Shown here in pieces: positions 7,889-31,302 of a stretch of DNA of 64,000 nucleotides. The translations under genes and the position numbers were made by a program. Within the stretch, counting starts at the first letter, position 1, and every line of letters starts with the position of its first letter. The stretch comes from a virus (lineage: Duplodnaviria > Caudoviricetes), in IMG/VR virus record IMGVR_UViG_3300049198_000021, positions 64,001 through 128,000 of that record. One strand, written 5' to 3'. The notes below the pieces were generated by a model. It worked only from the letters and a program-made list of their open reading frames with translations, did no database searches and was not told the origin of the DNA.

Positions 7889-8058
7889 GGTTAATATGCG
7901 GAGCGATTTCGTTAAGGTTAACAGATTCGGGGCATCCGTTAACGTTAACGAGGTCTCCCCTCCCCGTTAACCATTGATCTGGAAAAAGTGCTTGACCGAA
8001 TCGGTTGCTTCTGCGACTCAGGATGCACGGCGAATCACCGCCGCTTGGAGACGACCTA

Positions 8059-8304
8059 ATGCCTTTGAAACCCGCCGCCGCTCTCAGCAAGGATAAGCTG
8101 GGCGCAAGCCACCCCGCCGCCCTCCAGCACCGGCACTTCGCCGTCATCGCTGGAATCCTCGCCAACCTCGACCGGGACAGCCTCGGCTTGACGCAAGGGC
8201 AGCACCTCAACATCTGCCAAGACTTCGCGTCCGAACTCTCCGGAACAAACCCGAAATTCGACGAGCGTCGATTCATGGTCGCTTGCGGGTTCGCGGCCCC
8301 CTGA
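8059..8304 (+). CDS. Cassette hypothetical protein
   Basis: GGAGA RBS before ATG 8059 (start corrected from track). Confidence 0.8.
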   Translation: MPLKPAAALSKDKLGASHPAALQHRHFAVIAGILANLDRDSLGLTQGQHLNICQDFASELSGTNPKFDERRFMVACGFAAP

Positions 8305-8402
8305 TGGGGTGTCTCGACGCTATCGCCCGGTTCTTTCTGGGCGTCTTTCTGTTGATCCTTGCAACTGGGCTGGCCGCGTGCCAGCCCCTTTTCTTACGGT
8401 AA
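8304..8402 (+). CDS. Micro-lipoprotein, copy 1 (32 aa)
   Basis: MGCLDAIARFFLGVFLLILATGLAACQPLFLR; hydrophobic stretch plus LAAC lipobox; TGATG coupling. Confidence 0.7.
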   Translation: MGCLDAIARFFLGVFLLILATGLAACQPLFLR

Positions 8403-8500
8403 CCAGCCGTTAAGGTTAACGCGGCGGGTAATTCGTTAAGGTTAACGCGGCGGGGTAATTCGTTAAGGTTAACGCGCCGGTTGAAATCGTTAACCATCAA

Positions 8501-8568
8501 AGTGGAAAAGTGCTTGACCGAATCGGTTGGACCACCTAGACCCGAATCACCAACAACGGAGACAGACC
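8501..8568 (+). promoter_or_regulatory. Representative cassette promoter and RBS
   Basis: TTGACC (8514), 17-bp spacer, TAGACC, CGAATCA, ACGGAGACAGACC ATG. Confidence 0.85.
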
Positions 8569-8820
8569 ATGAAACTGCAAGAAATTAGCACCACCGAGGT
8601 GGATGAATCGTGCCTCGACGACGACGGGAAGGTTCCTTACATCGCCTTGCATTGTGCAGCGACGGAAGCTGACGCGGCGTTCGTTATCGCACAAACGACC
8701 GACGGCTACGACGGACGCAGCGATTGGCGCTGGATTCGCCTCCCGAACGGCGATCTGATCCTTGGCGTGTTCCCGCAAGGCGACACCTATCTGCAATTCG
8801 CCGACACCATTGGCATTTAA
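8569..8820 (+). CDS. Cassette hypothetical protein
   Basis: Consensus RBS. Confidence 0.8.
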   Translation: MKLQEISTTEVDESCLDDDGKVPYIALHCAATEADAAFVIAQTTDGYDGRSDWRWIRLPNGDLILGVFPQGDTYLQFADTIGI

Positions 8821-8834
8821 GGGGAGGCAAGTAA

Positions 8835-9203
8835 ATGAACCGCTATTTTTACGACCCGGCGACCGCCTCGTGGGGCTCGGCTGACGACCTCGAAATCTTC
8901 GAACTCGACGACCAGAACATGGACGCCGACGAAATCGAACAGGCGCTGTGCGACGCCTCGCACGTCGGGGCCGGGCTCGGCCTGAAATACCTGCTCGACC
9001 GCCGGGCCAAGAATGAGCCCTACCGCCGGGAGAACATCGGGATTCGCGCCGTGAAGGACAACGGCAAGACCGAATGGGAAGTGGTGGAGGACGACGCCGA
9101 CGCCGACGCCTTCGAACTTTACCGGCATGACACCGGGACGCTTGTCGAAGTTTGCGCCACCCGCGAAGACGCTACCGAATACTGGGAAGCGATCACCACC
9201 TAA
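8835..9203 (+). CDS. Acidic hypothetical protein
   Basis: GGAGG RBS; followed by a terminator. Confidence 0.8.
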   Translation: MNRYFYDPATASWGSADDLEIFELDDQNMDADEIEQALCDASHVGAGLGLKYLLDRRAKNEPYRRENIGIRAVKDNGKTEWEVVEDDADADAFELYRHDTGTLVEVCATREDATEYWEAITT

Positions 9204-9208
9204 GGATT

Positions 9209-9234
9209 GGCGGGCTTCGGCCCGCCTTTCTTTT
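9209..9234 (+). terminator. Representative intrinsic terminator; similar hairpins close most cassettes
   Basis: GGCGGGC TTCG GCCCGCC TTTCTTTT. Confidence 0.85.
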
Positions 9235-9349
9235 ACCGGTAACTATTCGTTAAGGTTAACAGATTGGCTTTAGACGTTAACCATTAAAGTGGAAAAATTA
9301 GTCGAAATAGTGCTTGACCGAATCAGCGAATCATCCTAGACCAAATATC

Positions 9350-9445
9350 GGAATGACCCCTCCGGCGGGCCGCTCGATGACGGGGCGGATGGGGAGGAGG
9401 CGATGGGATAATCCGAAAGGATGAAGCCCACGTTAGCCCGCCAAA
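9350..9445 (+). ncRNA. Candidate structured, possibly pseudoknotted 5' leader RNA
   Basis: Pairings 9357-63/9387-94 and 9364-70/9436-42; GAAA hairpin 9411-22. Confidence 0.4.
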
Positions 9446-9464
9446 TTGTAACAGGAGACAGACC

Positions 9465-9842
9465 ATGCAAACCATCTGGCAATTCGAAACCAAGAACTTC
9501 ACCGTCCGAATGTCTTGCGACTACGATCAGGACACCACAGACCTTTCGTGGGATGACACCGGCGAAGTCGCTGAAAAGCTGGCAAGCGGTGAATGGGCCT
9601 GCTATACCTTCCACGCCGAAGTTATCGAAAACTCCACCGTTAACACCATCGGGGAAGACTACCTCGGCGGTTCTATCTATGCCAACCCGGAAGACTTCCG
9701 GGACCATGTGGGGCTCGCAATCAAGAGCCGCGAAGATGGGCGCAACTATGGCAGCTACTTCACGGACATGATCCGCGAAGCGATCCGCGAGGCTCGCAAG
9801 ACCTACGCCGAACAGCGCCCGCGCCTTCGCGTTCCAGCCTAA
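9465..9842 (+). CDS. Cassette hypothetical protein
   Basis: Consensus RBS AGGAGACAGACC. Confidence 0.85.
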   Translation: MQTIWQFETKNFTVRMSCDYDQDTTDLSWDDTGEVAEKLASGEWACYTFHAEVIENSTVNTIGEDYLGGSIYANPEDFRDHVGLAIKSREDGRNYGSYFTDMIREAIREARKTYAEQRPRLRVPA

Positions 9843-10023
9843 GGGAGAGGGGCCTAGCGCCCCTCTTTCTTCGCCGGTAACTATTCGTTAAGGTTAACGC
9901 ATCGGGGTAATTCGTTAACCATCAAAGTGGAAAAAGTGCTTGACCGAATCACTTGAGACACCTAGAAACGAATCAGCAATGCAGGGAGCGACTCGCACCG
10001 GGCAGCTACAACGGAGATAGGCC

Positions 10024-10413
10024 ATGCCGCAAATTTTGATCGAATACACGAAGACGGAAGTCACCCGCGAACGGGTGTGGATCGAAGCCGACTCGCCCGC
10101 TGAGGCGTTGCGGGTTGTCGAGGAATATGAATTTGACAATTCGGACGCCTACGAAGTCGATTCGCTGCGCTGGGAAATCAGCGATGCTTCTGTGCATGAG
10201 GTGGAGCCCGTGGAAGTGGAAGTGCTTGTGCGCCTCCCCGTCGCCATCACATGCGAGCGCGACAACGTGGAGACCGTGGTCCACCGCGTGGCGACCGTCG
10301 CCGAAGCCGAAGAGTGGATTGCCGTGGGTCTTGCCGACGGGTTCCTTGACGAAGACGACGTGGAACAGGGCACCTACGGAATCGATGCCCCTGAGGAGAT
10401 GATAAACCCATGA
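10024..10413 (+). CDS. Very acidic hypothetical protein
   Basis: RBS; VWIEADSPAEA motif. Confidence 0.8.
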   Translation: MPQILIEYTKTEVTRERVWIEADSPAEALRVVEEYEFDNSDAYEVDSLRWEISDASVHEVEPVEVEVLVRLPVAITCERDNVETVVHRVATVAEAEEWIAVGLADGFLDEDDVEQGTYGIDAPEEMINP

Positions 10414-10670
10414 CCATCATGCGCCCATTCGTGAACATAAACGGCACCAGCCGGGCCGCTCTTGTCGATCAGCGCCGCGCCGCGATGGAAGCCGTCCGGC
10501 TTGCCATGACGGCCCTGCAAGAGACCTGCCCGCATGGCCGCGACTACATCGGCGATCCGGCCCGCTTCGACCATGACCGGGGCGTCTATAACCGGCGGTT
10601 CGCCAAGCTGGACGAATTGCACAACGACTTGCTGGACGAAGCGTTAGCGATTCAGAATGGAGGGGCTTAG
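10410..10670 (+). CDS. Cassette hypothetical protein
   Basis: ATGA overlap; terminator follows. Confidence 0.8.
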   Translation: MTIMRPFVNINGTSRAALVDQRRAAMEAVRLAMTALQETCPHGRDYIGDPARFDHDRGVYNRRFAKLDELHNDLLDEALAIQNGGA

Positions 10671-10804
10671 GCCCCTCTATTTTTACCAGTAACTCGGCGT
10701 TAAGGTTAACACCACAGAGATCGGCCTTAACCATTAAAGTGGAAAAAGTGTTTGACCGAATCGCTTGTTTGTCATAGAACGAATCATCACAACGGAGACA
10801 GACC

Positions 10805-11134
10805 ATGAAAGACTTGCTTGACCGCTGCCTCGCCCGTCCGGGTAAAAACTTCGGAGCGGGCTATGGCTTCGCCCTCGCCTATCTGGACGACAAGATGAAC
10901 CCCGCTCACTTGCGGGACGCCGCTTGTCACATGGTCGGCAAGGCATACGGTCCCCACGGCTGGGCCGCTGCCCGTAAGAGCCCTGATCTGGCGTCATTCG
11001 TGCTGGCATACAGCGAAGCGGAATGCTTCGAAGACTTCGCAATCGAAGCGGCACAACTGCTGCTGGAATGGGGAATGCGTGGCGATCCGGACGCCGCCGC
11101 CGCGCTTCGCCTTTGCGGCCATCCGGGTTATTGA
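10805..11134 (+). CDS. Cassette hypothetical protein
   Basis: Consensus RBS. Confidence 0.8.
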   Translation: MKDLLDRCLARPGKNFGAGYGFALAYLDDKMNPAHLRDAACHMVGKAYGPHGWAAARKSPDLASFVLAYSEAECFEDFAIEAAQLLLEWGMRGDPDAAAALRLCGHPGY

Positions 11135-11281
11135 GGGAGGGGCTTCGGCCCCTTTCTTTTTATTCCTAACACATCGTTAAGGTTAACGCGCCGCCATTCT
11201 CCGTTAACCACTGGGATGGAGAAAGTGCTTGCTCGAATCACTTGATTGGTCTAGGGTGAAACTATCAAGAGGAGATTGCCC

Positions 11282-11515
11282 ATGAAAAACTTGCTCAAGG
11301 AATACCACCAAGCTGCTGACAGGGAAATCCAACGCTGGCCCGGCGTTGCGATTATCGAACGCAGGATCGGCAAACACGCCCGGCTGAGTCTGGAGTTTCA
11401 GGGCCGCAGGCGCTTTGTGATTCACCCGGCCTCACCCAGCGACGTTCGGGGAGTCCATCGCCACGTTCAGGATATTAAGCGCGTCCTGACTGAATTAGGT
11501 GCGAACCGGGTCTAA
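11282..11515 (+). CDS. HicA-like fold protein
   Basis: RRIGKH...VIHPASPSDVRG...DIKRVL resembles phage HicA-like GxH / PSDxR proteins. Confidence 0.55.
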   Translation: MKNLLKEYHQAADREIQRWPGVAIIERRIGKHARLSLEFQGRRRFVIHPASPSDVRGVHRHVQDIKRVLTELGANRV

Positions 11516-11597
11516 AAATAAGTGGAAAAAGTGATTGACCGAATCACTCTAACCGCCTAGACACGAATCACCGCAATCAAGCGGACGGAGACAGACT

Positions 11598-11954
11598 ATG
11601 AAAAACCTCGAAACCCGTATGAATAAGGGCCGGGACGGCTGGCAGGCAAAGACGGAAATCCCTCTCGAAGGGATCAGCATCACGGACGGCGACAAGGTGA
11701 AGCCGGCGATCCTGACGATCAGCACCCGCAAGCATTCGCGTGGCGGCCTCTCCACCGGTTGCAGCGTCGCCTTCCGCGACGGTAACTTCATGACGCACCG
11801 CGTCTATACCGACTTCAACGTCGCCTATACCCGCGACCCGAACGCTCGCTGCACCGAAAAGGCAATCGAGCGGATGCACTCCGAGGCGCTGGCGGACATT
11901 GCCACGATCGAATCAGCGGTTCGCGACCACTACGCCGCGCTCGAAGCGGAATAA
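11598..11954 (+). CDS. Cassette hypothetical protein; paralogue of 12115..12510
   Basis: Consensus RBS; shared motifs. Confidence 0.85.
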   Translation: MKNLETRMNKGRDGWQAKTEIPLEGISITDGDKVKPAILTISTRKHSRGGLSTGCSVAFRDGNFMTHRVYTDFNVAYTRDPNARCTEKAIERMHSEALADIATIESAVRDHYAALEAE

Positions 11955-12114
11955 GGGAAGGCGGGGAAACCCGCCTTTTCTTTTGCCCTTAGCCCGGTGT
12001 TAACCTTAACAAATCGGCCGCATTCGTTAACCATCAAAGTGGAAAAAGTGCTTGACCGAATCGCTTGTTCAACCTAGACACGAATCACCGCAATCAAGCG
12101 GACGGAGACAGACT

Positions 12115-12510
12115 ATGAACGAGACCACCGTCAAAAAAGACCACTGGGGTAAGTGGATTGCTGAAACCCGCACCCCGCTTCCCGGCATTCGCAGCATGAG
12201 CGCCACGAACAACGAAGAGCGCAACGAACCCGCCGCCTTGCTTGTCAGCACCTACAAGGACTCGCGTGGCGATCTGGTCAGCAACGCAATCGTGATCTTC
12301 ATCACGGACAGCGGCCACCGCACCGCAATCGGCGGCCCGACCGGCGACTACAGCCGCACCATCCGCCGCGAACGCGGCGCACGCGTCACCGAGAAGAAGC
12401 TTCGCAGCTATCACGCCGAATCGCTCGGCTATATCCCGCAGGTCGTCGCTGATCTGGCGAACCACTACAATCAGGGCGACCCGCTCGCCGAACGGGCGAA
12501 GGCGGCCTAA
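12115..12510 (+). CDS. Cassette hypothetical protein; paralogue of 11598..11954
   Basis: Start corrected to MNETT; identical leader. Confidence 0.85.
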   Translation: MNETTVKKDHWGKWIAETRTPLPGIRSMSATNNEERNEPAALLVSTYKDSRGDLVSNAIVIFITDSGHRTAIGGPTGDYSRTIRRERGARVTEKKLRSYHAESLGYIPQVVADLANHYNQGDPLAERAKAA

Positions 12511-12674
12511 AAAGACTGGCGGGCTCCGGCCCGCCTTTCTTTTGCCGGTAACCAACCGTTAAGGTTAACGCGACGAGATAATTAGTTAACCATTAAAGTG
12601 GAAAAAGTGCTTGACCGAATCAGCGAGTCACCTTATCAACGAATCACCGCAATCAAGCGGACGGAGACAAGACC

Positions 12675-13025
12675 ATGTGCAACATCGGCGGGCAGATTGG
12701 CCCCTTCATGTATAACCCGGCCTGCAAGCCGGTTGAACGCAAGGTCGGCAAGGTGACGTTCCTTGTCGGCATCGCGACCGCCTACAACGCGTTCGGCCTG
12801 ATTGGCACCGAACACAACGGCATCTTCATTCTCGACGACACGAACATGACCGTCGTCATGGACCGTCACAGCGAAGGCTCGGCTGGTGGCTTCGGCCCCT
12901 ACGGCTCGCAAGTCGCTGAGCGTGACCGCCTGCTCGCCCTGAGCGACGCGGACTTCCTCGCCTTCATTCGCAGCAACCCCCGCTTCCGTGGTGTGGACCT
13001 ACCGAACGTGGGGAAGGCCGCATGA
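12675..13025 (+). CDS. Cassette hypothetical protein
   Basis: Consensus RBS. Confidence 0.8.
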   Translation: MCNIGGQIGPFMYNPACKPVERKVGKVTFLVGIATAYNAFGLIGTEHNGIFILDDTNMTVVMDRHSEGSAGGFGPYGSQVAERDRLLALSDADFLAFIRSNPRFRGVDLPNVGKAA

Positions 13026-13324
13026 TCGACCGGGACAAGTTTCTCGCCATGCTCGACACACTGGAGTGTCGCGGCCTCATCAACGCACCAACAGCCTATT
13101 CAGGACGGGGAATGTATGGAAAGCGTTGCATCGCCCTGACTGGGGATTCGGTCAGCGAATGGGGCCTCGCAATCCAAATGGCGGCCATTGCCGACGAATA
13201 CGACGTGACGCCCTACGACCTGCCTGAGCCCTCGACCGATTCGATGGGACGGGGCATCGTCCTCTATTGGCGGGGCCTCGAATGGCCGGAAGACCGCCGC
13301 GATCCGGACGAAGACGAATACTAA
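13022..13324 (+). CDS. Cassette hypothetical protein (YSGRGMYGKRC / DSMGRG motif)
   Basis: ATGA overlap; terminator follows. Confidence 0.8.
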   Translation: MIDRDKFLAMLDTLECRGLINAPTAYSGRGMYGKRCIALTGDSVSEWGLAIQMAAIADEYDVTPYDLPEPSTDSMGRGIVLYWRGLEWPEDRRDPDEDEY

Positions 13325-13474
13325 GGGAAGGCGGGGCAACCCGCCTTTTCTTTTGCCCTTAGCCCGGTGTTAACCTTAACAAATCGGATCAAGTAGTTAA
13401 CCATCAAAGTGGAAAAAGTGCTTGACCGAATCGCTTGTGCAACCTAGAACCGAATCACCAACAGGAGACAGACC

Positions 13475-13783
13475 ATGCGAATCAGTCACATTGAAATGAC
13501 CATCACCCTCGAAGACGGCCAGACCGTGCAGGGCCTTATCAGCCCGGAAGGCGAATCGCGCTGGGGCAATGACATTCCCCACCTCGCCGCCGCCGTGATA
13601 CCCATGGAAGCCATGGCCGCCGCCTTGCAGGAAAACGACGCGTGGGAACGCGAAGAAGAAGACGAAGACGAATACCACGGCGAATGCGGCCAGTGCGAAG
13701 GCACCGGCACAATCGAAGGCGGGCTTGGCGGTGATGGGGACGACGAAGAATGCCCTGTCTGTGACGGAAGCGGGGAACTCTGA
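13475..13783 (+). CDS. Acidic protein with DnaJ-type zinc-finger repeats
   Basis: CGQCEGTG ... CPVCDGSG. Confidence 0.8.
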   Translation: MRISHIEMTITLEDGQTVQGLISPEGESRWGNDIPHLAAAVIPMEAMAAALQENDAWEREEEDEDEYHGECGQCEGTGTIEGGLGGDGDDEECPVCDGSGEL

Positions 13784-14025
13784 TGCACAAGACCCCGCCC
13801 GCAATCGACACCAGCGTTACCGTCCAACTCTGGACGCCCGGCGGCTTGATTGTCAGCATCCCCGCCGGGTTCATTACGTCCGATCCCGTCCGGGCTTCGC
13901 TCGACAAGCGGACGCAAGAAGGCGACACACACGCGGCAATCACCATGGCCCGGCACACCGGCCTAGACGTAACCATCCGCCGGGAAACCCAGACCACCGT
14001 TCGCGCCTCCGATCTGGAGGCGTGA
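13783..14025 (+). CDS. Cassette hypothetical protein
   Basis: TGATG coupling. Confidence 0.7.
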   Translation: MHKTPPAIDTSVTVQLWTPGGLIVSIPAGFITSDPVRASLDKRTQEGDTHAAITMARHTGLDVTIRRETQTTVRASDLEA

Positions 14026-14151
14026 GCGCCCGTTTACCAGCCGTTAACCTTAACAAATTGAACTAACTTGTTAACCGCTGATCTGGAAAAAGTGCTTGAC
14101 CAAATGCAACGGCTCGCCTAGAAACGAATCAGTTGAAACGGAGACAAGACC

Positions 14152-14709
14152 ATGTTTGATGCACTCGACCAGAAGACTTTCATCCTTTGCGGGCTCGCAA
14201 TCGAAGCGGCGGCGGATGACGACGAATCAATCGACAAGCGCGACCCGTCAAAGCTGGAATATCAGCGCGGCTCCGAAGTCACCGGGGTGGCATGGCTGAG
14301 CGGCTATGACTCACGGGGTGACGCCCCGCCTTGCCTGCAAAAGGTGATCGACTCGCACTATGACGCGCAAAACGCCGAATGGAAGCGGCAATATCCGGAC
14401 CGCCCCGATCTGCACCTTTGCGTGGATTATGCCGACGCCCTCCCCTACGCTGGGGAAGCTGAGGAATGGCTGGACGCCGTGCTGAGCGGCCCGGACGGGC
14501 GCGGGGAAGCCGCCTATCTGCAAATCGAAGTCACTTTCGACGACGATACGGTTCAATGGTGGGCGCGCTTTACCGATGAAATCAACGCCCCGCTATCCGA
14601 AGGCGGGCGCGGCGAAATGGACGCCGAAGCGTTCCTTGCGCTGGACGACGACGCGCTGGAAACGCTCGCAAAGGAGATTGCCGAGTCGGCTTATGACTAC
14701 GGCGCTTGA
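14152..14709 (+). CDS. Acidic hypothetical protein
   Basis: Consensus RBS; 185 aa. Confidence 0.85.
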   Translation: MFDALDQKTFILCGLAIEAAADDDESIDKRDPSKLEYQRGSEVTGVAWLSGYDSRGDAPPCLQKVIDSHYDAQNAEWKRQYPDRPDLHLCVDYADALPYAGEAEEWLDAVLSGPDGRGEAAYLQIEVTFDDDTVQWWARFTDEINAPLSEGGRGEMDAEAFLALDDDALETLAKEIAESAYDYGA

Positions 14710-14850
14710 AGACTGGCGGGCTCCGGCCCGCCTTTCTTTTGCCGGTAACCAGCCGTTAACCTTAACAAGTCGTTACCACTAGGTGGAAAAAGTGATTGAC
14801 CGAATCGGTTGTGTCTCCTAGAAACGAATCAGTTGAAACGGAGACCGACC

Positions 14851-22893: not shown

Positions 22894-22916
22894 ACCGGGA
22901 GGGGCTTCGGCCCCTC

Positions 22917-24293: not shown

Positions 24294-24460
24294 GAGAAGG
24301 GGCTTCGGCCCCTTTTCTTTTGCCCTTAACTCCGCGTTAAGGTTAACAGATCGGACCACTTTGTTAACCATTAAAATGCAAGCAAGTGGAAAAAGTGCTT
24401 GCACGAATCAGTGGCCTAGGGCAAACGAATCAGGCGACACAGAGCCGCCGGAGACGACCT

Positions 24461-24760: not shown

Positions 24761-25157
24761 GAAACTAGCCGCCGCTTATGCGGCTGTCACCGAGGCACAC
24801 AAAGCCCACGAAGACGCCCTAAACGCCGCTGAGGCCGCTTTGACGGATCATGTGGAGCAAATGCTAACCGAACTCGCCAAGCGGTTCCCGCGCCGACGCT
24901 TCTACGCCTCATCAGGGATGGGAAGCCTTTCTATCGAAGTCTATCCCGGACCTAAGCCGCGTTACGCACACCACCCGCGCCAGCCTTACAAATGGTTCTG
25001 GGGCGGAATGTGGGGACCGGATAACACTTGGCGATTCCTGTGGCAGGATTGGGAAGACCTGCTCGATTCGTTCATCAAAGAGACCGGGCAGACCGCTAAC
25101 GATTACGTCAACTTCACCCGTGAACTTGACGTGAGGGGCACACGCTACAAGGATTAA
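24753..25157 (+). CDS. Cassette hypothetical protein
   Basis: Overlapping start; GAGG RBS. Confidence 0.75.
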   Translation: MAKKLAAAYAAVTEAHKAHEDALNAAEAALTDHVEQMLTELAKRFPRRRFYASSGMGSLSIEVYPGPKPRYAHHPRQPYKWFWGGMWGPDNTWRFLWQDWEDLLDSFIKETGQTANDYVNFTRELDVRGTRYKD

Positions 25158-25292
25158 GGGAAGGGCGGACCGCCGCCCTTTTCCTTGTTAGTGGTTCGTT
25201 AAGGTTAACCAATCCTGCCACTTGAGTGGAAAAAGTGCTTGACCGAATCAGTGGAGCCGCCTAGACCGGGCTGACCAACACGGAGATTTTCT

Positions 25293-25544
25293 ATGACCTC
25301 GATTCGCGACCTCGCCCACGCCCGCCACCTCGTCGCCACCGGCGAAGCCGCCGCTCGCATGGCCCGCACCTCGCAGCAGGCCGAAAACCTGCGGATCGCG
25401 TTCGTGGAGCGCTGGGAGGCGCTTGGCGACCTCACCACCTGCGCCGCCATTGATGAAGGCAAATGGCTTGACAGCCAAATCAAGGAACTGGATTGCGACT
25501 GGGGCGACCCTGTATCGCCTGAATGCGAATGGCACCTGCACTAA
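25293..25544 (+). CDS. Cassette hypothetical protein
   Basis: RBS and terminator. Confidence 0.8.
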   Translation: MTSIRDLAHARHLVATGEAAARMARTSQQAENLRIAFVERWEALGDLTTCAAIDEGKWLDSQIKELDCDWGDPVSPECEWHLH

Positions 25545-25711
25545 GGGCGCGGGCTTCGGCCCGCCTCTTGGCTGGTAACGGTTTGTTAAGGTTAACGCCC
25601 GACCGGAATTTGTTAACCATCAAAATGGAAAGTAAGTGGAAAATTGCTTGACCGAATCGGCTTAGACTGGCACTAACGAATCACCGCAATCAAGCGGACG
25701 GAGACAAGACT

Positions 25712-25798
25712 ATGAGCCGACACCAGAAACGCCGCCTTGCCGCCAAGCGTGCGCGCATCGCCATTCTTTCCTCGTGGATCGCAAAGGGCCGCCGCTAA
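25712..25798 (+). CDS. Arg-rich 28-aa peptide
   Basis: MSRHQKRRLAAKRARIAILSSWIAKGRR after the consensus RBS; TAATG coupling to next gene. Confidence 0.7.
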   Translation: MSRHQKRRLAAKRARIAILSSWIAKGRR

Positions 25799-26064
25799 TG
25801 GCTGGCTTCTGGGATCGCGTGGACACCCTCGAAATGGTGGAACTCTACGCCGAGGACAACGGGCAGATTGCCAGCGAAGAGGAGCTTTCCAAGCGCTTTG
25901 ACGCCGAAATCCTTCCGCTCGTGCTGGAGCAATACAGCGAGTCCGATACGGTCGCAATCAATGAGGCTTTCAACGATTGGACCGATTCGCTCTGCAAGGA
26001 CGGCGAAATCCACCCGGATCAATACGATTCTTACTGCTACGTTGGGAGGCTGGCAGACGACTAA
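25798..26064 (+). CDS. Very acidic small protein
   Basis: Start MAGFW; terminator follows. Confidence 0.8.
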   Translation: MAGFWDRVDTLEMVELYAEDNGQIASEEELSKRFDAEILPLVLEQYSESDTVAINEAFNDWTDSLCKDGEIHPDQYDSYCYVGRLADD

Positions 26065-26173
26065 GGCGAGGGGCTTCGGCCCCTCACCAAACTTTTTTCG
26101 TAATTAGTGGAAAAAGTGCTTGACCGAATCAGTTGGCTCGCCTAGAAACGAATCAACAGCAACGGAGGCAGTC

Positions 26174-26326
26174 ATGCAGATCAACACTTACCACGTTTAC
26201 ATCAACAACACCTTTTCCGGGATCATCTCGGCGGTGTCTTACCGGCAGGCTCTCAAGCGCGCCAAGGCAAAGCATCGCGGCCCGGTTGACGTGATCGGGT
26301 TCGTCTCCGCAAAGGCGAAGGTTTAA
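26174..26326 (+). CDS. Small basic protein; paralogue of 31030..31302
   Basis: Start corrected to MQINT. Confidence 0.75.
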   Translation: MQINTYHVYINNTFSGIISAVSYRQALKRAKAKHRGPVDVIGFVSAKAKV

Positions 26327-26488
26327 GGGGAGGGGCTTCGGCCCCTCTTTCTTTTTGCCTGTTACGATCTGTTAACCTTAACAAATATGGTTAACAAATT
26401 AACGTTTGGCGTTAACCATTAAAGTGGAAAAAGTGCTTGACCGAAGCAGTGACTCGTGTGAAAACGAATCATCAATCGGAGACAGATC

Positions 26489-26668
26489 ATGAAGAATCGC
26501 AACACCCTTGACGCCCGTTACAGCATCCGCCTCGAATGGTGCGGACACGCCACGCAACAATGGGTCGCCCGCTTCTGTGGTGATTGGCTGGGCTGCGATG
26601 CAACCCGCTCGGGCGCTGAGGAAATCGCCCGGCTTTATGAGCGCGACCGCTGGGCGGTGGCGGCATGA
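26489..26668 (+). CDS. Small hypothetical protein (59 aa)
   Basis: MKNRNTLDARYSIRLEWCG...ARFCGDWLG; consensus RBS; absent from track. Confidence 0.75.
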   Translation: MKNRNTLDARYSIRLEWCGHATQQWVARFCGDWLGCDATRSGAEEIARLYERDRWAVAA

Positions 26669-26841
26669 AACCGAAACACCCTTGCAGCGTAAAGCGCGAC
26701 GCAATTTTTCTGGCCGCTGTAAAGCATCCCTTCACCCGGTGGAACGAACACACAGGCGAACAACAAGCCAGATTTATCAAGCAGGCCACGCATATCCGGG
26801 AGCATCTGCGGGATTACGAACCGGGAGCATTCATCGACTAG
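26665..26841 (+). CDS. Small hypothetical protein (58 aa)
   Basis: ATGA overlap; ends at a terminator. Confidence 0.6.
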   Translation: MKPKHPCSVKRDAIFLAAVKHPFTRWNEHTGEQQARFIKQATHIREHLRDYEPGAFID

Positions 26842-26990
26842 CAAGAGGCGGGAGCGATCCCGCCTTTCGCATTGTTAACCCAGTGTTAAGGTTAACATAT
26901 TGGTCTAAGTTGTTAACCATCAAAGTGGAAAAAGTGATTGACCGAATCAGCAAATCGGCCTAGACCCGAATCATCAACCGGAGACAGATC

Positions 26991-27119
26991 ATGCAAAACA
27001 TCCGCAAGAACCCCATCGCCGCCTCGCTCGCCAGCGCCCACCTCGTCCCTCGCAAGGTTCGCGCTCGCAAGGGCAAGGGCTCTTTCCGCCGCAACCCGAA
27101 ACACCGGGGCGCGGCGTGA
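26991..27119 (+). CDS. arfA: ArfA-like alternative ribosome-rescue factor (42 aa)
   Basis: MQNIRKNPIAASLASAHLVPRKVRARKGKGSFRRNPKHRGAA matches the ArfA pattern N.I...L....L..R.....KGKGS..R..KH. Confidence 0.75.
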   Translation: MQNIRKNPIAASLASAHLVPRKVRARKGKGSFRRNPKHRGAA

Positions 27120-27460
27120 GCGACCGCATCCGCCCCGTGGTTTTCGACTCGGCCCAGATCGAGCCCTTTGCCGCTCGCATCATCGGCATAGCCGCTTCGC
27201 AATTCTGTCGCCTCAAGGAGCGCGAGAAAGAGACCGGAGAGAAGTCGGACCCCTTCGACATGGAAGACGCTCTGATGCACCTCTGGTGGGCTCTCAAGGG
27301 GCTTGACCACATCGCAATAGCGTTGCGCGGCGGCAGGGATTGCGACGACCCGTCTGGCGTTCATTTTTCCATGGTGATGAACGCAGAACACGCCCGGATT
27401 CGCCGCCTTATCATGGAAGAACTCGGAGTCGATCCCGGATCACACCCGCGCTGGAAATGA
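27116..27460 (+). CDS. Cassette hypothetical protein
   Basis: GTGA overlap; terminator follows. Confidence 0.7.
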   Translation: MSDRIRPVVFDSAQIEPFAARIIGIAASQFCRLKEREKETGEKSDPFDMEDALMHLWWALKGLDHIAIALRGGRDCDDPSGVHFSMVMNAEHARIRRLIMEELGVDPGSHPRWK

Positions 27461-27613
27461 GGGGCTTCGGCCCCTCTTTCTTTTCTGGTAACCGTTCGTT
27501 AACCTTAATAAACGGCCCGAAATCGTTAACCATCAAAGTGGAAAAAGTGCTTGACCGAATCAGCGAATCGGCCCATACCCGAATCACCGCAACCAAGCGG
27601 ACGGAGACAGTCA

Positions 27614-27904
27614 ATGCAGACCAACGATCCCAGCGCCGTCACCCACCACAACGGAGGCACCACCTTCACCGGCGACGCCATCCACCTCTACCGCGCCGTG
27701 ACCCTCAAGGGCGCTCTCAAGCTGCACCGCGATTGCGGCATGATCCCGACTCGCGGCATGACCATCACAAAGATGTTCGCCATCGCCCAGCAGATCACCG
27801 GCAAGAAGTATAAGCGCGGCGGCCATGATGCGGCCATCACCGACCTGACCGCGTGGATCGAAGCCGCCAAGGCATCCATGCCGATCATCGACGAGCGGAC
27901 CTGA
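27614..27904 (+). CDS. Cassette hypothetical protein
   Basis: Start corrected to MQTND. Confidence 0.8.
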   Translation: MQTNDPSAVTHHNGGTTFTGDAIHLYRAVTLKGALKLHRDCGMIPTRGMTITKMFAIAQQITGKKYKRGGHDAAITDLTAWIEAAKASMPIIDERT

Positions 27905-28132
27905 AAGGAGATTGGTTAACGGGGAAGCCCTCCCCGTTAACCATATTTCCGGCTGGTAACCAGTCGTTAAGGTTAACAGCGCCGCAGCATTCCTTAACCA
28001 TCAAAGTGGAAAGTAAGTGGAAAAAGTGGTTGCACGAATCAGCGAATCGGTCTAGACCCGAATCACCGGGCGGCACCTACTGACTGGCAGAGCAGCGGCA
28101 AGGCTCGCCCGGTAAACAACAGGAGACAGACC

Positions 28133-28294
28133 ATGTTCGAAGTGATCACTACGCTCCGCACCTTCTATGTGCAGGCTGACACTTTCAACCTCGCCGTCCT
28201 CTCGGCTTATCAATTCATTCTGGACGACGAATCGATCCTCGGCATCAAGACCGACGGACCTGCAACGTTCATCATCGTGGAGATCGCAGCATGA
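28133..28294 (+). CDS. Small hypothetical protein (53 aa)
   Basis: MFEVITTLRTFYVQAD...; consensus RBS; absent from track. Confidence 0.7.
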   Translation: MFEVITTLRTFYVQADTFNLAVLSAYQFILDDESILGIKTDGPATFIIVEIAA

Positions 28295-28509
28295 TCAGCA
28301 AGAAAGACGCAATCGCCAAGGCAATCGCGGCTGGAGCCTCGCAAGAGGAAATCGACCGCCAAGCCGCAAACTACGTCCGCCAAGTGGGCAGCGTGCCTTT
28401 CAACAACATGATTCGCGCCCTTAACCTAGGCCCGTGGCTCAACACGGTTGACGACTGGACCCCGCTGGCAGCAGCCCTGACCGCGAGGGGATTGGCGCGA
28501 AAGCGCTAA
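28291..28509 (+). CDS. Cassette hypothetical protein
   Basis: ATGA overlap. Confidence 0.75.
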   Translation: MISKKDAIAKAIAAGASQEEIDRQAANYVRQVGSVPFNNMIRALNLGPWLNTVDDWTPLAAALTARGLARKR

Positions 28510-28629
28510 TTCCTTAACGGAATAGGGGAATTTGTTAAGGTTAACCCGAATTAAGAATAAAGTGGAAAAAGTGCTTGACCGAATCGGTTAACCATCCTAG
28601 AAACGAATCAACAGCAACGGAGACACACC

Positions 28630-28842
28630 ATGAAGATCAAGATCAAGACCACCGCCCGCTACACCGCCAAGCGCAAGGCTGCTATCATCGCCGACGTGGA
28701 CAACGGCACTACCACCCTCGAAGAGGTTTGCAGCCTGCACAACATCACAAGCGAAGAGTTCGACGGCTGGCGCAAGTCGCTGGACCGCTCGGGACAGCAG
28801 GGGCTTCGGATCACCCGGCTGCAACACTACCGGGCAGCATAA
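28630..28842 (+). CDS. sciP: SciP / DUF1153 family CtrA-inhibitory protein homologue
   Basis: T.R...RKA..I..V..G...LEE.C......EEF..W...LDR.G..GLR.TRLQ.YR matches alphaproteobacterial SciP along its length. Confidence 0.88.
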   Translation: MKIKIKTTARYTAKRKAAIIADVDNGTTTLEEVCSLHNITSEEFDGWRKSLDRSGQQGLRITRLQHYRAA

Positions 28843-28972
28843 GGGAAGGGGCTTCGGCTCTTTTTCTTTTGCCTTTAACCCAGTGTTAAGGTTAACAAGT
28901 CAACTGAATTAGTTAACTAATTAGCTGGAAAAAGTGCTTGACCGAATCAGCGAATCGGCCTAGACCCAAGCC

Positions 28973-29140
28973 ATGGAAATGACCCTTTCAGAAATCCGCC
29001 ACAAGCGTGACCGGGCAATCGTTCAGCGCCGACTCGGCGAGGAACGCCGCCGCCACGTTAACCAATGCGTCGCCGACATCATCGCACAAGGAAAGATGGA
29101 AGAGCGCCGCCAGACCACCCGACGGGAGGAAGACCAATGA
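28973..29140 (+). CDS. Small basic protein, probably leaderless
   Basis: ATG 6 nt after the -10 hexamer, no RBS; ATGA overlap with next gene. Confidence 0.6.
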   Translation: MEMTLSEIRHKRDRAIVQRRLGEERRRHVNQCVADIIAQGKMEERRQTTRREEDQ

Positions 29141-29337
29141 CAGACCGCCGATTCGTAATTGTCGAAAACGCCGGATATGAAGGCGAGCAAGACATCACCC
29201 ACTTTCTCACCTTGCGGGAGGCATTCGCCTATCAGCGCGGCCATTATGAGCCGGACGAGATCGAAGAATTGCACGTCGATATTCGCCAAGACTGGACGGA
29301 CGAAAACGGCGATTTTCATCAGGAATATGTCTATTAG
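29137..29337 (+). CDS. Small acidic protein
   Basis: GGAGG RBS; start MTDRR. Confidence 0.75.
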   Translation: MTDRRFVIVENAGYEGEQDITHFLTLREAFAYQRGHYEPDEIEELHVDIRQDWTDENGDFHQEYVY

Positions 29338-29404
29338 GTGGAAAAAGTGCTTGACCGAATCGGTGGCCTATGCGAAAACGAATCATCGAAACGGAGACAA
29401 GCAA

Positions 29405-29599
29405 ATGACCACCATCCTGATCCTCGCCGCCGCCGCCCTGATCTTCGCCACCGTGGCATTTTTCAAGGCCCGCGCCGAACTCGCCGCTCACGCCGCCGAA
29501 CAGGCAAGCAAGCATATCCCCAACCCCACCATCTACAGCGGCCCGCGCTTCACCGCACATGGCCGGGAAATCCAACAGACCGGACGGCGGATCATCTGA
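29405..29599 (+). CDS. Small membrane-anchored protein
   Basis: MTTILILAAAALIFATVAFF N-terminal hydrophobic helix. Confidence 0.75.
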   Translation: MTTILILAAAALIFATVAFFKARAELAAHAAEQASKHIPNPTIYSGPRFTAHGREIQQTGRRII

Positions 29600-29755
29600 G
29601 AAAGGGGCGGGAGAAATCCCGCCCTTTTCTTTGGCCGGTAACCGGGTGTTAAGGTTAATAAAACGGTGAAATTCGTTAATCATCAAAGTGGAAAAAGTGC
29701 TTGACCGAATCGGTTGGCGAGTTTAGACCCGAATCATTGGAAACGGAGACAGACC

Positions 29756-29953
29756 ATGAGCAAGCCCACCGAACAAGCAATCGCCGCCGACCTCGACCTT
29801 TGCGACATGATCCTTGCATTCGGAACGCCCGCCGCCAAGCGAAAGGCCCGCGCCCACCGCAAGGCTTGTTTCGCAGAAATCGCCCGGATGAACGCCGAGG
29901 CCGGGACTGACAAACTGAGCGATGATGAATTGCTCGCTGAATTGATGGCCTGA
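29756..29953 (+). CDS. Cassette hypothetical protein
   Basis: Start corrected to MSKPT. Confidence 0.8.
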   Translation: MSKPTEQAIAADLDLCDMILAFGTPAAKRKARAHRKACFAEIARMNAEAGTDKLSDDELLAELMA

Positions 29954-30141
29954 TAGGAACCGGCCCCTGACAACAGGGGCCGGGACCCTAATTCACTGAG
30001 AACAAGGGCCGGGCTCTAAAATCGTAAATTCAGGTTAACCTTAACAGATCGGTCGAAATCGTTAACTATTAAAGTGGAAAAAGTGCTTGACCGAATCGTT
30101 TGGCGCGTTTAGACCCGAATCATTGAAAACGGAGACAGACC

Positions 30142-30417
30142 ATGGAAAGATTCGAACTGACGGGCTCGGGCATCAGCGACGGGCAGAATCCGGAAAAACT
30201 GCTTGCTGCCGCGAAAAAGTGCGGCCTTCGGAATCCCCGACTCGCCTATCACTACGGCTGGTCCAATCAGCCGAAAACGATTCGTTTCAGCGCCGAAAAC
30301 TGGGAAGCTGCCGATAAGGTCGCCGATCTGGTGCGAACCGAGTTTTACCCGGAAAACGCCGAGGGCCGTTTGTGCCCGATGATTCGGGCCTATCCGGTAA
30401 AAGCCCCAGAAGCCTGA
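30142..30417 (+). CDS. Cassette hypothetical protein
   Basis: Consensus RBS. Confidence 0.8.
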   Translation: MERFELTGSGISDGQNPEKLLAAAKKCGLRNPRLAYHYGWSNQPKTIRFSAENWEAADKVADLVRTEFYPENAEGRLCPMIRAYPVKAPEA

Positions 30418-30590
30418 TCCCGGAAAAGCCCGATTCGCCGAATCGGGCTTTTTCCTTTTTCGGTAACCCTGCGTTAACCTTAATAAAACGGCGAAAATCG
30501 TTAACCCTAAAAATCGGCCTTTCTGGAAAAAGTGCTTGACCGAATCGGCCTTTTCTGGAAAAACCGGACCACCGCAAAGGGAGAAAAGAC

Positions 30591-30746
30591 ATGATCAGCA
30601 TGGAAGCGATTATTGGGGGCCTTATTTCGGGGTTCGCTGTGCGCCTCTATGGTGCAGGGCTTGCTCTCTATGTGGGCCTGTCTGCAAGCGACCTTATCAG
30701 CAGCACCTATGGGAGCGTGGCTGCTACCCTAGCCACCCTGCCCTAG
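30591..30746 (+). CDS. Small hydrophobic protein (51 aa)
   Basis: MISMEAIIGGLISGFAVRLYGAGLALYVGLSASDLISSTYGSVAATLATLP; GGGAGA RBS. Confidence 0.65.
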   Translation: MISMEAIIGGLISGFAVRLYGAGLALYVGLSASDLISSTYGSVAATLATLP

Positions 30747-31029
30747 CCCACTCTGCCCTACCTAGGGCTGTGTGTGCGCTGCGCTCGGCTGCTATGGATT
30801 GGGGTCATTTTGCGTATGTGCGTGCGCGTGTGTGTGTGTGCGACTGACTGCCAGCGTGGCTGCCCTCGCCTGCCAGCGTGGCTGTCACCCTCCCAGCCCA
30901 TAGGGCATGGGCTGCCCTTCCCCTGCCCTAGCAGGTGGAAAAACAAACTCACAAACAAATGGATTTTGTTATTGATTTGGTAACGAATCGATGCGATAAG
31001 GGGACATCGAAAGCGAACGGAGAAACAAC

Positions 31030-31302
31030 ATGACCAACCTGATCCCCACCTTCCGCGTCTATAAGAACAAGGTCCTTGTCGGCACCGTGTCGGCCACGAC
31101 TGAACAGCAGGCACATGCCCGCGCATATGGCAAGTATGGCCGTTGCGAAGTCATGAAGGCTGACATGGAGCGCCGCCTTAGCACTGCGGGCCGTGTGGAG
31201 CGCGCTGACAGCAGCTTCACCCATGGCCGTAGCCCCTACCCCACCCCCGGCTTTGAGGCACGCCGCGCCGCTGAAATCGCCCGCTGGAAAGCGGGCGAAT
31301 AA
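31030..31302 (+). CDS. Hypothetical protein, last cassette
   Basis: ACGGAGA RBS; N-terminus similar to 26174..26326. Confidence 0.8.
   Translation: MTNLIPTFRVYKNKVLVGTVSATTEQQAHARAYGKYGRCEVMKADMERRLSTAGRVERADSSFTHGRSPYPTPGFEARRAAEIARWKAGE

Follow-up and report, generated by a model that had tools for sequence, protein, structure and literature searches.

Genomic context of the array

The source genome, a complete IMG/VR phage of 176,504 bp, has XM05 and vB_EliS-L02 (L02), both CbK-like phages of Erythrobacter, among its relatives. The window analysed here is a stretch of 64,000 nucleotides (positions 64,001 to 128,000 of record IMGVR_UViG_3300049198_000021), to which all coordinates refer. 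The phage is probably a virulent CbK-like siphophage, and its host an Erythrobacter-type alphaproteobacterium (Sphingomonadales). The terminase genes (4336-6487, +) lie directly 5' of a repeat-rich gap, which is followed by an array of small-gene cassettes, PhoH and the portal, and the same layout was found in XM05 and L02.

4336-4914, +, small terminase TerS (Pfam Terminase_2, E 4e-8)
4754-6487, +, large terminase TerL (Pfam Terminase_6C, E 4e-16)
6480-7975, unstranded, repeat-rich non-coding gap of 1.5 kb (sequence and repeat families D1-D9)
6480-6690 and 7700-7975, two blocks of the gap crowded with TTAAC-type boxes, flanking the iterons
7498-7665, seven 20-nt iterons with a period of 26-27 bp
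7964-30577, +, array of 40 cassettes (nhmmer profile)
26991-27119, +, ArfA-like protein (alternative ribosome-rescue factor A), 42 aa, first gene of cassette 32 (Pfam ArfA, E 3e-7, 28.4 bits, cut-off 25.5)
28630-28842, +, SciP-like (DUF1153) helix-turn-helix protein, 70 aa, cassette 35 (Pfam DUF1153, 70.5 bits, cut-off 23.5)
30591-32774, +, unit of the last promoter, reaching PhoH with no element after 30577
31956-32774, +, PhoH (Pfam PhoH, E 5e-67)
37553-39364, portal (Pfam DUF4055 portal)
40751-41677, major capsid (Pfam GP7 capsid)

The iteron block is kept in relatives, where it shows up as a spurious "family 8" ORF, and the second box-rich block of the gap holds four perfect CtrA-type TTAA-N7-TTAA boxes (7721, 7782, 7844 and 7874). 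The phiCbK genome has its physical left end at terL, where its terminal repeat also starts (PMC3556154), and the corresponding stretch of that phage consists of the terminal repeat and early small genes as far as the portal gp42. By analogy, the array would occupy the terminal-repeat end of the genome, and this end may enter the cell first.

Forty co-oriented cassettes of small genes

A search of the whole 176.5-kb genome with an nhmmer profile of the core returned 40 elements, all on the + strand and head-to-tail (7964-30577), and no credible copy outside the array, the remaining matches being two marginal ones on the minus strand with E above 1e-4. The 18-nt core (up to 2 mismatches) occurs 38 times genome-wide, always on + and within 7985-30546; a 24-nt promoter word (up to 3 mismatches) was counted 35 times, all on +, versus 0 in 100 shuffles. 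The about 42 standardised + strand cassettes described in the earlier note are therefore real, with the count now set at 40, and its about 60 short ORFs in small units agree with the about 56 genes called, which form mini-operons of one to three. Cassette length has a median of 545 bp (range 306-1187), and the -35 hexamers start at:

Cassettes 1-10: 7992, 8514, 9314, 9940, 10752, 11229, 11535, 12052, 12611, 13422
Cassettes 11-20: 14096, 14796, 15246, 15814, 16454, 17106, 18293, 18949, 19582, 20220
Cassettes 21-30: 20800, 21744, 22275, 23195, 23698, 24005, 24399, 25239, 25648, 26120
Cassettes 31-40: 26437, 26938, 27551, 28030, 28575, 28938, 29351, 29701, 30087, 30536

The encoded proteins (42-212 aa, median 90) are small ORFans and not structural or replication proteins; a Pfam family was absent for 54 of the about 56, and only the SciP-like and ArfA-like products could be named. 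The host-takeover or anti-defence functions that the earlier note proposed for these genes are therefore conjectural.

Self-BLAST revealed that the repeats of the array are confined to stop-to-start spacers (150-175 bp, 67-83% identity) and detected no recent duplication in the source genome. The recurring junction blocks reported earlier were confirmed: 11952-12016 and 13322-13386 differ in 1 base of 65, with identity beginning exactly at the stop codon, and a 41-nt terminator block has exact copies at three non-adjacent sites (12514, 14711 and 15149). In 596 Gbp of bacterial genomes, the exact 18-mer gave only 13 scattered single matches, which is roughly what chance predicts (about 17 by our arithmetic).

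Anatomy of the element

In each spacer, a GC hairpin and its T run come first; TTAAC half-sites then form a ladder, and an A-rich tract, the promoter and a GGAGAC ribosome site follow in this order. The promoter consists of TTGACCG, 14 nt and CCTAGAAAC, with a GANTC site just 3' of each hexamer; the half-sites are phased at about -63, -52, -46 and -25 relative to the -35 box. The leader is short, often with a 5' hairpin, and GGAGAC ends about 6 nt 5' of ATG. The spacer between cassettes 8 and 9 may serve as the type element:

12511-12677, +, whole element, read from the sequence (preceding stop codon 12508-12510)
12518-12535, hairpin of -16.4 kcal/mol, with T tract at 12536-12543
12548-12562, near-CtrA box
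12558-12569, 12-mer box
12585-12593, SciP-type box
12594-12621, A-rich tract and invariant core
12611-12616, -35 hexamer
12616-12621, GANTC site
12634-12639, -10 hexamer
12640-12646, second GANTC block
12647-12660, leader hairpin
12663-12668, GGAGAC, with ATG at 12675

All cassettes but one (39 of 40) have GGAG ahead of their first start codon, 32 of them as the full GGAGAC. For 35 promoters, a hairpin with a folding energy of -12 kcal/mol or better was identified upstream, about 55-125 nt (mostly 60-90) 5' of the -35 box; some terminator read-through is likely, since five elements are without a clear hairpin and a strict rule (GC stem, then at least 5 T in 10 nt) recovers 22 of the 40. Sub-modules of the element reassort, one terminator being combined with the 12-mer box in either orientation and with leaders of three types.

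Candidate regulator boxes

The resemblance of the TTAAC boxes and GANTC sites to regulator sites had been missed in the earlier note. GTTAAC is strongly concentrated, with 95 of 107 genome copies inside 13.7% of the genome, as are 46 of 47 copies of the 12-mer. The proximal box, TTAACCAT, is the core of the SciP consensus reported from ChIP-seq (PMC4083442); 28 of its 30 genome copies lie in the gap-plus-array region, and its distance from the -35 box is constant, either -25 or -35/-36; the next base is C or T where the SciP consensus has a purine. A near-CtrA box with 11-bp spacing, [G/T]TAA-N7-TTAA, was located in 27 of the 40 elements, in registers that lie 10-12 bp from each other; only 8 boxes are perfect TTAA-N7-TTAA, and TTAA spacings of 6, 21 and 27 predominate, not 11. 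The GANTC context of the element, CGAATCA, reads on the opposite strand as TGATTCG, the top GcrA motif (PMC4647560), and in each promoter the flanks of both GANTC sites agree with the context that GcrA prefers. Furthermore, the repeated early promoter of phiCbK has the same GGTAACC-N4-GTTAAC box, whose copy 5' of gp005 lies in the stretch that supplied a 99-bp probe bound by CtrA in EMSA.

No CtrA, GcrA or CcrM genes were found in the phage. Its SciP-like protein matched the NCBIfam model "CtrA inhibitor SciP" with E 5e-19, though its 68 bits fall short of the equivalog cut-off (100), and aligned to positions 28-90 of 90, the first ~27 residues of the bacterial model being missing. The gene is kept in all relatives compared, at 45-98% amino acid identity. 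Judging from these motifs, the boxes and GANTC sites may tie all early promoters to host CtrA, SciP and GcrA-CcrM, with the phage SciP-like protein feeding back, a tentative reading to which we give somewhat less than even odds.

It is also conceivable, if somewhat less likely, that the boxes are operators for a phage-made protein, either the SciP-like helix-turn-helix or an unrecognised small protein, or belong to end-of-genome machinery (packaging, injection stop or replication origin), host CtrA and SciP being uninvolved and GANTC representing ordinary promoter context. Boxes are indeed most crowded around the iterons, in the gap that adjoins TerS and TerL; the most frequent spacing is 6 bp and so differs from that of CtrA; a DUF1153 protein is encoded in every relative, and the boxes are kept in relatives with differing hosts. 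Such operators would, however, leave the SciP motif core, the 27 near-CtrA boxes, the CtrA-bound stretch of phiCbK and the doubled GcrA context unaccounted for.

Recombination at the core

The anatomy of the element is conserved in at least 15 related phage sequences: XM05 has 31 elements, IMG/VR contigs 18-33, and L02 a diverged version. The proposal of the earlier note that recombination between repeats adds and deletes cassettes was substantiated by contigs 3300008094_000044 and 3300025845_000015, which are 99.95% identical and differ by one 786-bp cassette indel, with the joint inside a 12-nt identical tract of the core. Duplication, likewise proposed, is seen in 3300037322_000262 as one tandem and one dispersed copy (90.6% over 415 bp and 89% over 400 bp, respectively), each starting at -12 from a -35 box. 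Between 3300025853_000035 and 3300034072_001074, homology of 93.8% over 10.3 kb stops at -38/-37. The suggested reordering applies to part of the array: cassettes 1-15 stand in scrambled order when compared with XM05 and other relatives, whereas the order of the second half is largely conserved. Given this collinearity and the lack of recent duplications in the source genome, rearrangement appears to be occasional, and shuffling is not free.

The profile was also mapped in relatives, and the two halves of the element were compared between the source genome and five of them, split by which neighbouring gene is orthologous. With only the downstream gene orthologous, the spacer-and-leader half was 0.79 identical versus 0.65 for random pairs (p 8e-19), and the terminator/box half 0.51 versus 0.455; with only the upstream gene orthologous, the terminator/box half was 0.68 identical (p 1e-7). 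Leader halves go with the downstream gene and terminator halves with the upstream one, which places breakpoints inside the element, as had been predicted. Adjacent cassettes range from 38 to 100% amino acid identity to one and the same relative. Repeat copies also evolve in concert: L02 has TTGACGAATC 25 times versus a single copy of the variant universal in the other phages, and a lineage-specific A-to-T change common to two contigs occurs in 11-13 of their copies. These data show that the ~24-nt invariant core is the place where cassettes join, get lost, duplicate and swap between lineages, and that the heritable unit comprises leader, gene(s) and terminator/boxes.

The elements might instead be alike through selection for the same host polymerase and regulators, with recombination as a rare by-product and no role in gene capture. 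The conserved order of the second half and the source genome without recent duplications agree with this, functional selection would explain the helical phase of the box positions, and viable breakpoints are in any case forced to lie between genes. Selection alone would keep breakpoints intergenic, and it is only their fine mapping to the core, not merely to spacers, that argues for a mechanism. Sequence without a specific functional requirement is still held in common, such as the identical 41-nt terminator blocks at three non-adjacent sites, lineage-specific single-base variants are homogenised across 11-25 copies, and neighbouring cassettes differ widely in identity to one relative; we consider selection alone improbable. 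As for recombination at the core, it would proceed by phage or host homologous or short-homology machinery, and it is probably a consequence of the first job of the element, regulated early transcription.

A probable early region divided into mini-operons

We interpret the locus, with a probability of roughly 0.8, as an early-gene region adjoining the terminase genes and cut into mini-operons by forty near-identical composite regulatory elements. Each element would close the preceding unit by an intrinsic terminator and then offer the half-site ladder, A-rich tract, promoter and leader; host RNA polymerase would fire every unit early, and the terminators would insulate units from each other. 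Early timing, promoter strength and terminator efficiency are predictions from the nucleotide sequence.

The promoter fits the Caulobacter RpoD consensus, TTGaCgS / GCtANAWC (PMC8144410), closely. Its -10 hexamer has no T at position 6, and an E. coli-type promoter scan recovered 0 of the array promoters. Such a hexamer, non-canonical by the E. coli rule, and a highly uniform lineage-specific core would also be expected of middle or late promoters for which the phage makes its own specificity factor. We regard this as very improbable in view of the alphaproteobacterial RpoD fit, the position, which matches the early region in the terminal repeat of phiCbK, and the non-structural, non-replicative ORFans; neither sigma-70 region 2 nor a T7-type polymerase was detected in the phage. 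A selfish, MITE-like miniature repeat spread through spacers could account for many copies sharing sequence beyond the obviously functional parts, but is hardly credible for 40 of 40 copies in one orientation that each exactly fill a stop-to-start spacer and give the next gene its promoter and ribosome site, with terminal inverted repeats and target duplications absent and no copies elsewhere in the genome or, beyond chance, in bacterial genomes.

Comparison with known systems

The array of mini-operons invites comparison with integrons, in which small and mostly unknown gene cassettes likewise stand in an ordered series and come and go at repeated joints. The earlier note had called it an integrase-free, integron-like platform; no integrase is indeed needed, but the likeness is an analogy only. 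The array has neither integrase, attI/attC folded sites nor a common Pc promoter, each cassette brings its own promoter and terminator, and exchange relies on ordinary sequence homology. The right comparison is the already described PeSL (promoter-early stem-loop) system of T4-like myoviruses (Arbiol, Comeau, Krisch 2010, PMC2839356; Comeau 2014, PMC4122927), for which its authors had already drawn the analogy to integrons without an integrase (PMC2839356). PeSLs are likewise composite elements of about 100 bp or more, with a sigma-70-type early promoter, a stem-loop terminator and a 3' Shine-Dalgarno sequence with start codon; they flank ORFans in plastic regions, and near-identical phages have indel joints in the element. 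In contrast to PeSLs, which are scattered over several hyperplastic regions, the 40 co-oriented elements here form one uninterrupted 23-kb array in a CbK-like siphovirus of Sphingomonadales. The hairpin lies 5' of the -35 box and not between or over the hexamers, and a phased TTAAC ladder and two GANTC sites are added. The PeSL principle is thereby extended to a new lineage.

Phages of the phiCbK type are known to carry repeated early promoters with CtrA boxes in their terminal repeat (Mascolo et al. 2022, PMC9437464; Gill et al. 2012, PMC3556154). There too, small genes of unknown function lie after terL and before the portal, GGTAACC-N4-GTTAAC recurs in a repeated promoter-like element, and CtrA sites cluster in intergenic DNA at a genome end or gap. 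However, the phiCbK element occurs just about 5-6 times in 10 kb, as against 40 times here, and most of its copies stand at the head of longer operons. The phiCbK box overlies the -35 position, a placement suggestive of a CtrA-dependent promoter, whereas here a full -35 hexamer is found about 50 nt 3' of the box, half-site spacing is mostly non-canonical and a SciP-type box is added. The L02 genome paper makes no mention of promoters or repeats.

Many small genes in or next to a terminal redundancy are also characteristic of the host-takeover module of the Bacillus phage SPO1 and the pre-early (first-step-transfer) region of T5. These genes are organised as short operons, expressed first, in which host-type promoters and ribosome sites are both strong. 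To our knowledge, neither an upstream ladder of regulator boxes nor a role in cassette exchange has been described for them. They share with the array the division of a small-gene block into short operons with host-type promoters, but their units are far fewer and less uniform.

Confinement and regularity of the array

To our knowledge, no other natural phage genome is assembled as regularly from standard expression parts as this one, in which 40 interchangeable units make up 13% of the sequence. The source is a single IMG/VR virus record of 176,504 bp rated complete by CheckV, and the window covers its bases 64001-128000. The repeated promoter word pointed out in the earlier note proved real: its 24-nt form gave 35 matches (up to three mismatches), all on the plus strand, and none in shuffled sequences. 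The 18-nt core, a near-invariant stretch around the -35 box, was matched 38 times in the whole genome at up to two mismatches, every time within window 7985-30546, and a profile search with the core recovered 40 elements (the regulatory spacers between stop and start codons; window 7964-30577) and nothing credible elsewhere in the genome. A quoted 41-nt block was present at exactly the three positions claimed for it, and two 65-nt junction blocks differed by one base, with identity starting at the stop codon. Self-comparison showed the array repeats to consist of stop-to-start spacers only (150-175 bp, 67-83% identity, core nearly invariant), and the initial observation as a whole was confirmed. 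Across 596 Gbp of bacterial genomes the core was matched 13 times, with about 17 matches expected by chance according to our own arithmetic; therefore, it is neither a copied host promoter nor a prophage feature.

Genomic setting

The nearest relatives in GenBank were the cultured Erythrobacter phages XM05 (152 kb) and vB_EliS-L02 (150 kb; hereafter L02), the latter presented in its genome paper as the first CbK-like phage of Erythrobacter, with promoters and repeats unmentioned there. Small and large terminase genes are followed by a 1.5-kb non-coding gap, the array and then PhoH, portal, scaffold and capsid genes; the layout around the array is identical in XM05 and L02. By analogy with the Caulobacter phage phiCbK, the terminal-repeat end is the most likely place of the array in the genome, because there terL marks the start of the physical left end and of a 10-kb terminal repeat (PMC3556154), and small unknown genes fill the stretch from terL up to the portal gene gp42. 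We infer that this end enters the cell first.

Within the gap, two blocks dense in TTAAC boxes, including four perfect TTAA-N7-TTAA, are located on either side of seven 20-nt iterons (period 26-27 bp, window 7498-7665). The iterons are kept in relatives and may represent a packaging or end site, or else a replication origin. No tRNAs were detected in the window, and the Rfam search of the array gave no match above threshold.

Anatomy of the element

Downstream of the stop codon, a GC-rich hairpin with a T-rich tail reached -12 kcal/mol or lower in 35 of the 40 elements; 22 passed a strict terminator rule, and the hairpin, a predicted terminator, is placed upstream of the promoter, not inside it. 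After the hairpin comes GGTAACC, which forms GTAA-N7-TTAA or TTAA-N7-TTAA with the next box in 27 elements. A 12-mer of two tandem TTAAC hexamers in either orientation is present in 35/40, and a proximal GTTAACCAT box is found about 21 bp beyond it, succeeded by an A-rich tract. The core promoter consists of TTGACC, a 17-nt spacer and TAGAAA or TAGACC in at least 36 elements, with a GANTC site (context CGAATC) immediately 3' of each promoter hexamer. Many leaders open with a small hairpin, and GGAGAC closes the leader 5-8 nt 5' of the ATG (GGAG in 39 elements, GGAGAC in 32).

Spacing is likewise regular, with close to 100 nt from stop codon to -35 box in most units and 53-65 nt from -35 box to ATG. 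The registers of the boxes are 10-12 bp apart (12-mer at -41, -53 and -64; proximal box at -25 and -35/-36), so that the boxes keep the same helix face relative to the promoter. Boxes were absent from three elements, two of which also had no hairpin, and the element itself is therefore modular.

The predicted promoter fits the Caulobacter (alphaproteobacterial) RpoD consensus (PMC8144410), which was adopted for promoter calls in place of an E. coli-type scan; the latter found none of the elements because their -10 hexamers fall outside its rule. No sigma-70 genes were found in the phage. A search for a T7-polymerase gene also gave no match and was uninformative, as the polymerase control remained without a match anywhere.

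It should be added that a second, distinct class of repeated promoters heads minus-strand gene blocks, with TTGACG, 17 nt, a CTA-type -10 hexamer and a GGAGAC ribosome site like that of the array:

Genome 15136, 17513, 35994, 51297 and 64701; minus strand; copies of the second promoter class, beyond the window or at its edge

Cassette genes

About 56 genes encoding 42-212 aa (median 90) were called in the 40 units of 306-1187 bp. Pfam families were assigned to only two of them, DUF1153 (cassette 35) and ArfA (cassette 32), and PHROG matches across the array genes fell into 17 families, 16 without function and one annotated as transposase.

Individual features of cassettes 32, 34 and 35
Window 26991-27119; plus strand; first gene of cassette 32, ArfA-like protein (alternative ribosome-rescue factor A), 42 aa, Pfam E 3e-7
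Cassette 35; plus strand; SciP-like DUF1153 protein, 70 aa, Pfam DUF1153 70.5 bits (cut-off 23.5)
L02 32233-32254 and four loci of the 3300008094 group; 22-nt stretch of the cassette 34 leader in relatives

The ArfA-like protein represents unusual content for a phage early gene. By its domain match, the cassette 35 protein is a member of the DUF1153/SciP family and only putatively equivalent to SciP: it scored 68 bits against the NCBIfam SciP equivalog model (cut-off 100), with the N-terminal 27 positions absent. It is conserved in all relatives compared. A word-based homologue search with this protein returned only proteins of 68-70 aa, 72-99% identical, and no bacterial SciP; those that were placed belonged to contigs of this phage clade.

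Two cassettes deviate at their 5' ends. In cassette 34 the leader is long (about 100 nt; window 28059-28132) and includes a 22-nt stretch that is exactly conserved in the distant relative L02 and in other contigs. Folding gave -27.6 kcal/mol (z -1.7) and Rfam no match; a conserved regulatory function of the leader is possible. Cassette 36 (window 28938-29140) has no GGAG, its ATG being 6 nt 3' of the -10 hexamer, and its transcript is a candidate leaderless mRNA.

Arrays in relatives

The exact core occurred in 33 stretches of 19 IMG/VR contigs. Arrays of relatives held 18-33 elements per contig (tiles of the same contig joined), with 31 in XM05, and a diverged version of the array was present 3' of the L02 terminase. 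Both the boxes and the two GANTC sites were kept in all relatives compared. Cassettes 16-40 were largely collinear with relatives and cassettes 1-15 scrambled, and neighbouring cassettes showed 38-100% protein identity to one and the same relative. Together, the comparisons support shuffling that would be occasional, not free. Claims on gene order rest on tblastn and nucleotide alignments, the cassette maps being rough.

Self-comparison revealed no recent duplication within this genome. Tandem paralogues in cassettes 7 and 8 were considered as such and rejected at only 32% protein identity, and the "family 1" ORFs from the first ORF tiling were false, as they read through the promoter itself.

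The element as a recombination joint

Five independent lines agree in supporting the element as the joint at which cassettes recombine. The recombination proposed in the earlier note is thereby upheld, with the joints of indels, replacements and duplications among related phages mapping within the element. Over 20 kb, contigs 3300008094_000044 and 3300025845_000015 share 99.95% identity and differ by a single 786-bp cassette, two further contigs from other samples agreeing with the second form. The shorter form agrees with the left element as far as a 12-nt tract common to both elements, and with the right one thereafter. In 3300037322_000262, one tandem and one dispersed cassette duplication both start 12 nt 5' of a -35 box and stop after the next promoter. 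Homology of 93.8% over 10.3 kb between 3300025853_000035 and 3300034072_001074 stops 37-38 nt 5' of the -35 box in both.

High-identity blocks reaching from one element to another between divergent relatives were insufficient alone as proof of exchange, since any element can be aligned with any other. Instead, the spacer and leader half and the terminator and box half of the elements were compared separately between this genome and five relatives. Where only the downstream gene was orthologous, the spacer and leader half scored 0.79, against 0.65 for unrelated pairs (p 8e-19), and the terminator and box half fell to 0.51, near the random value of 0.455. Where the upstream gene was orthologous instead, the terminator and box half tracked it (0.68, p 1e-7). 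As the halves track different neighbouring genes, the inherited unit is the leader, gene(s) and terminator with boxes, joined at the core. Single-base core variants, lineage-specific and common to nearly all copies within a genome, bear the signature of concerted evolution. In this genome, every combination of terminator type, box orientation and leader type was found.

The present/absent cassette (3300008094_000044 9017-9803) is a homologue of cassette 3 (window 9314-9465). In this homologue the promoter core is partly duplicated and the GC-rich leader is 150 nt long; the array position of the cassette differs in each genome having it.

Comparison with PeSL cassettes and integrons

Judged from its sequence, the array is a variant form of the principle of promoter-early stem-loop (PeSL) cassettes of T4-like phages. 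Common to both are a repeated host sigma-70-type promoter consensus, predicted early (at least 36/40 elements), an adjacent stem-loop as predicted terminator or attenuator (hairpin in 35/40, strict rule in 22/40), a Shine-Dalgarno sequence with the start codon of the next gene at the 3' end of the element, and ORFans flanked by the element with indel joints inside it. In contrast to PeSLs, the array belongs to a different phage lineage, forms one unbroken run of 40 units at the terminase-proximal genome end, has its hairpin upstream of the promoter, and its elements possess an additional ladder of boxes and GANTC sites. PeSLs had so far been shown for T4-like myoviruses; the array extends the idea to an unrelated siphovirus lineage, and the array comparisons provide unusually clean evidence for joint positions.

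The comparison with integrons had already been drawn for PeSLs by their authors (PMC2839356), and the earlier note described the array as an integrase-free "integron-like platform". This wording could not be established, and the array is not an integron: no integrase or recombinase families (Pfam) were found among the 56 array proteins, the families matched being DUF1153 (with two overlapping HTH families) and ArfA; promoters take the place of imperfect-palindrome attC sites at its joints; and every unit is served by a promoter of its own, unlike cassettes that share a Pc promoter.

The conserved core offers a simple handle on accessory early genes across a whole marine phage clade. These genes, almost none with a known function, are candidate factors of host takeover or counter-defence. 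Because XM05 and L02 are in culture and their hosts are known, the predictions lend themselves to direct testing.

Possible link to host cell-cycle regulators

The boxes and GANTC sites possibly tie the array promoters to host CtrA/SciP/GcrA-CcrM regulation, a link that we hold at somewhat less than even odds. Perfect TTAA-N7-TTAA boxes number eight (four in the gap, four in elements), and 27 of the 40 elements are reached by adding the one-mismatch GTAA-N7-TTAA. The scarcity of perfect CtrA boxes and the dominant TTAA half-site spacings of 6, 21 and 27 argue against the link.

For SciP, the ChIP-seq consensus in Caulobacter and Sinorhizobium is (G/A)TTAACCAT(A/G), described as half a CtrA box (PMC4083442). 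The proximal box contains the consensus core TTAACCAT at a fixed position in 22/40 elements, and the same word occurs in 12-21 elements of each relative; however, it is followed by C or T in the elements, as against a purine in the consensus. GcrA/CcrM promoters carry GANTC in YGAKTCK context, at most 40 bp from the start site, near -20 or at +2 to +30 (PMC4647560). This context is present on the opposite strand of the elements, as CGAATCA and CGAATCG, and the reverse complement of the former, TGATTCG, is the top GcrA motif at CcrM-methylated sites (PMC4647560). A GANTC site was present 3' of the -35 box in 36 elements and 3' of the -10 box in 34, the centres being at about -27 and -3, near, but outside, the reported GcrA windows. 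Searches of the phage for CtrA-type, GcrA and CcrM-type genes found none. The predicted complex of the phage SciP-like protein with Caulobacter CtrA scored 0.00, which weighs neither for nor against binding.

More specifically, and with a probability of roughly 0.35, all 40 early promoters might be wired to the alphaproteobacterial cell-cycle circuit, so that the whole early programme would fire only in a particular host cell and DNA-methylation state. The sensor would be composed of the upstream near-CtrA box, the SciP-type box and two GcrA-preferred CcrM methylation sites, and would give the phage an inbuilt switch of the "wait for S phase" or lytic-deferment kind. The truncated SciP homologue of the phage would in turn either switch these promoters off or repress flagellar and pilus genes of the host. 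With the same sensor in every cassette, any gene captured by recombination at the core would immediately come under cell-state control. Taken with the SciP homologue of the phage, the motif matches for SciP, CtrA and GcrA/CcrM suggest how the CtrA-based lytic deferment proposed for phages of Alphaproteobacteria might work in concrete terms.

That CtrA sites gather at the ends of CbK-like genomes is known from a study that saw no SciP signal; its SciP sites came from a different collection (Tan et al. 2010). The terminal repeat of phiCbK carries, at 2296-6466, a promoter-like repeat of 50-67 nt in 5-6 copies, with a CTAGGGT -10 hexamer and GGTAACC-N4-GTTAAC over the -35 position. The copy upstream of gp005 falls in the stretch that supplied a CtrA-bound EMSA probe, the match being at stretch level only. 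The same terminal repeat also carries 22-nt and 38-nt tandem repeats near 1755-2288.
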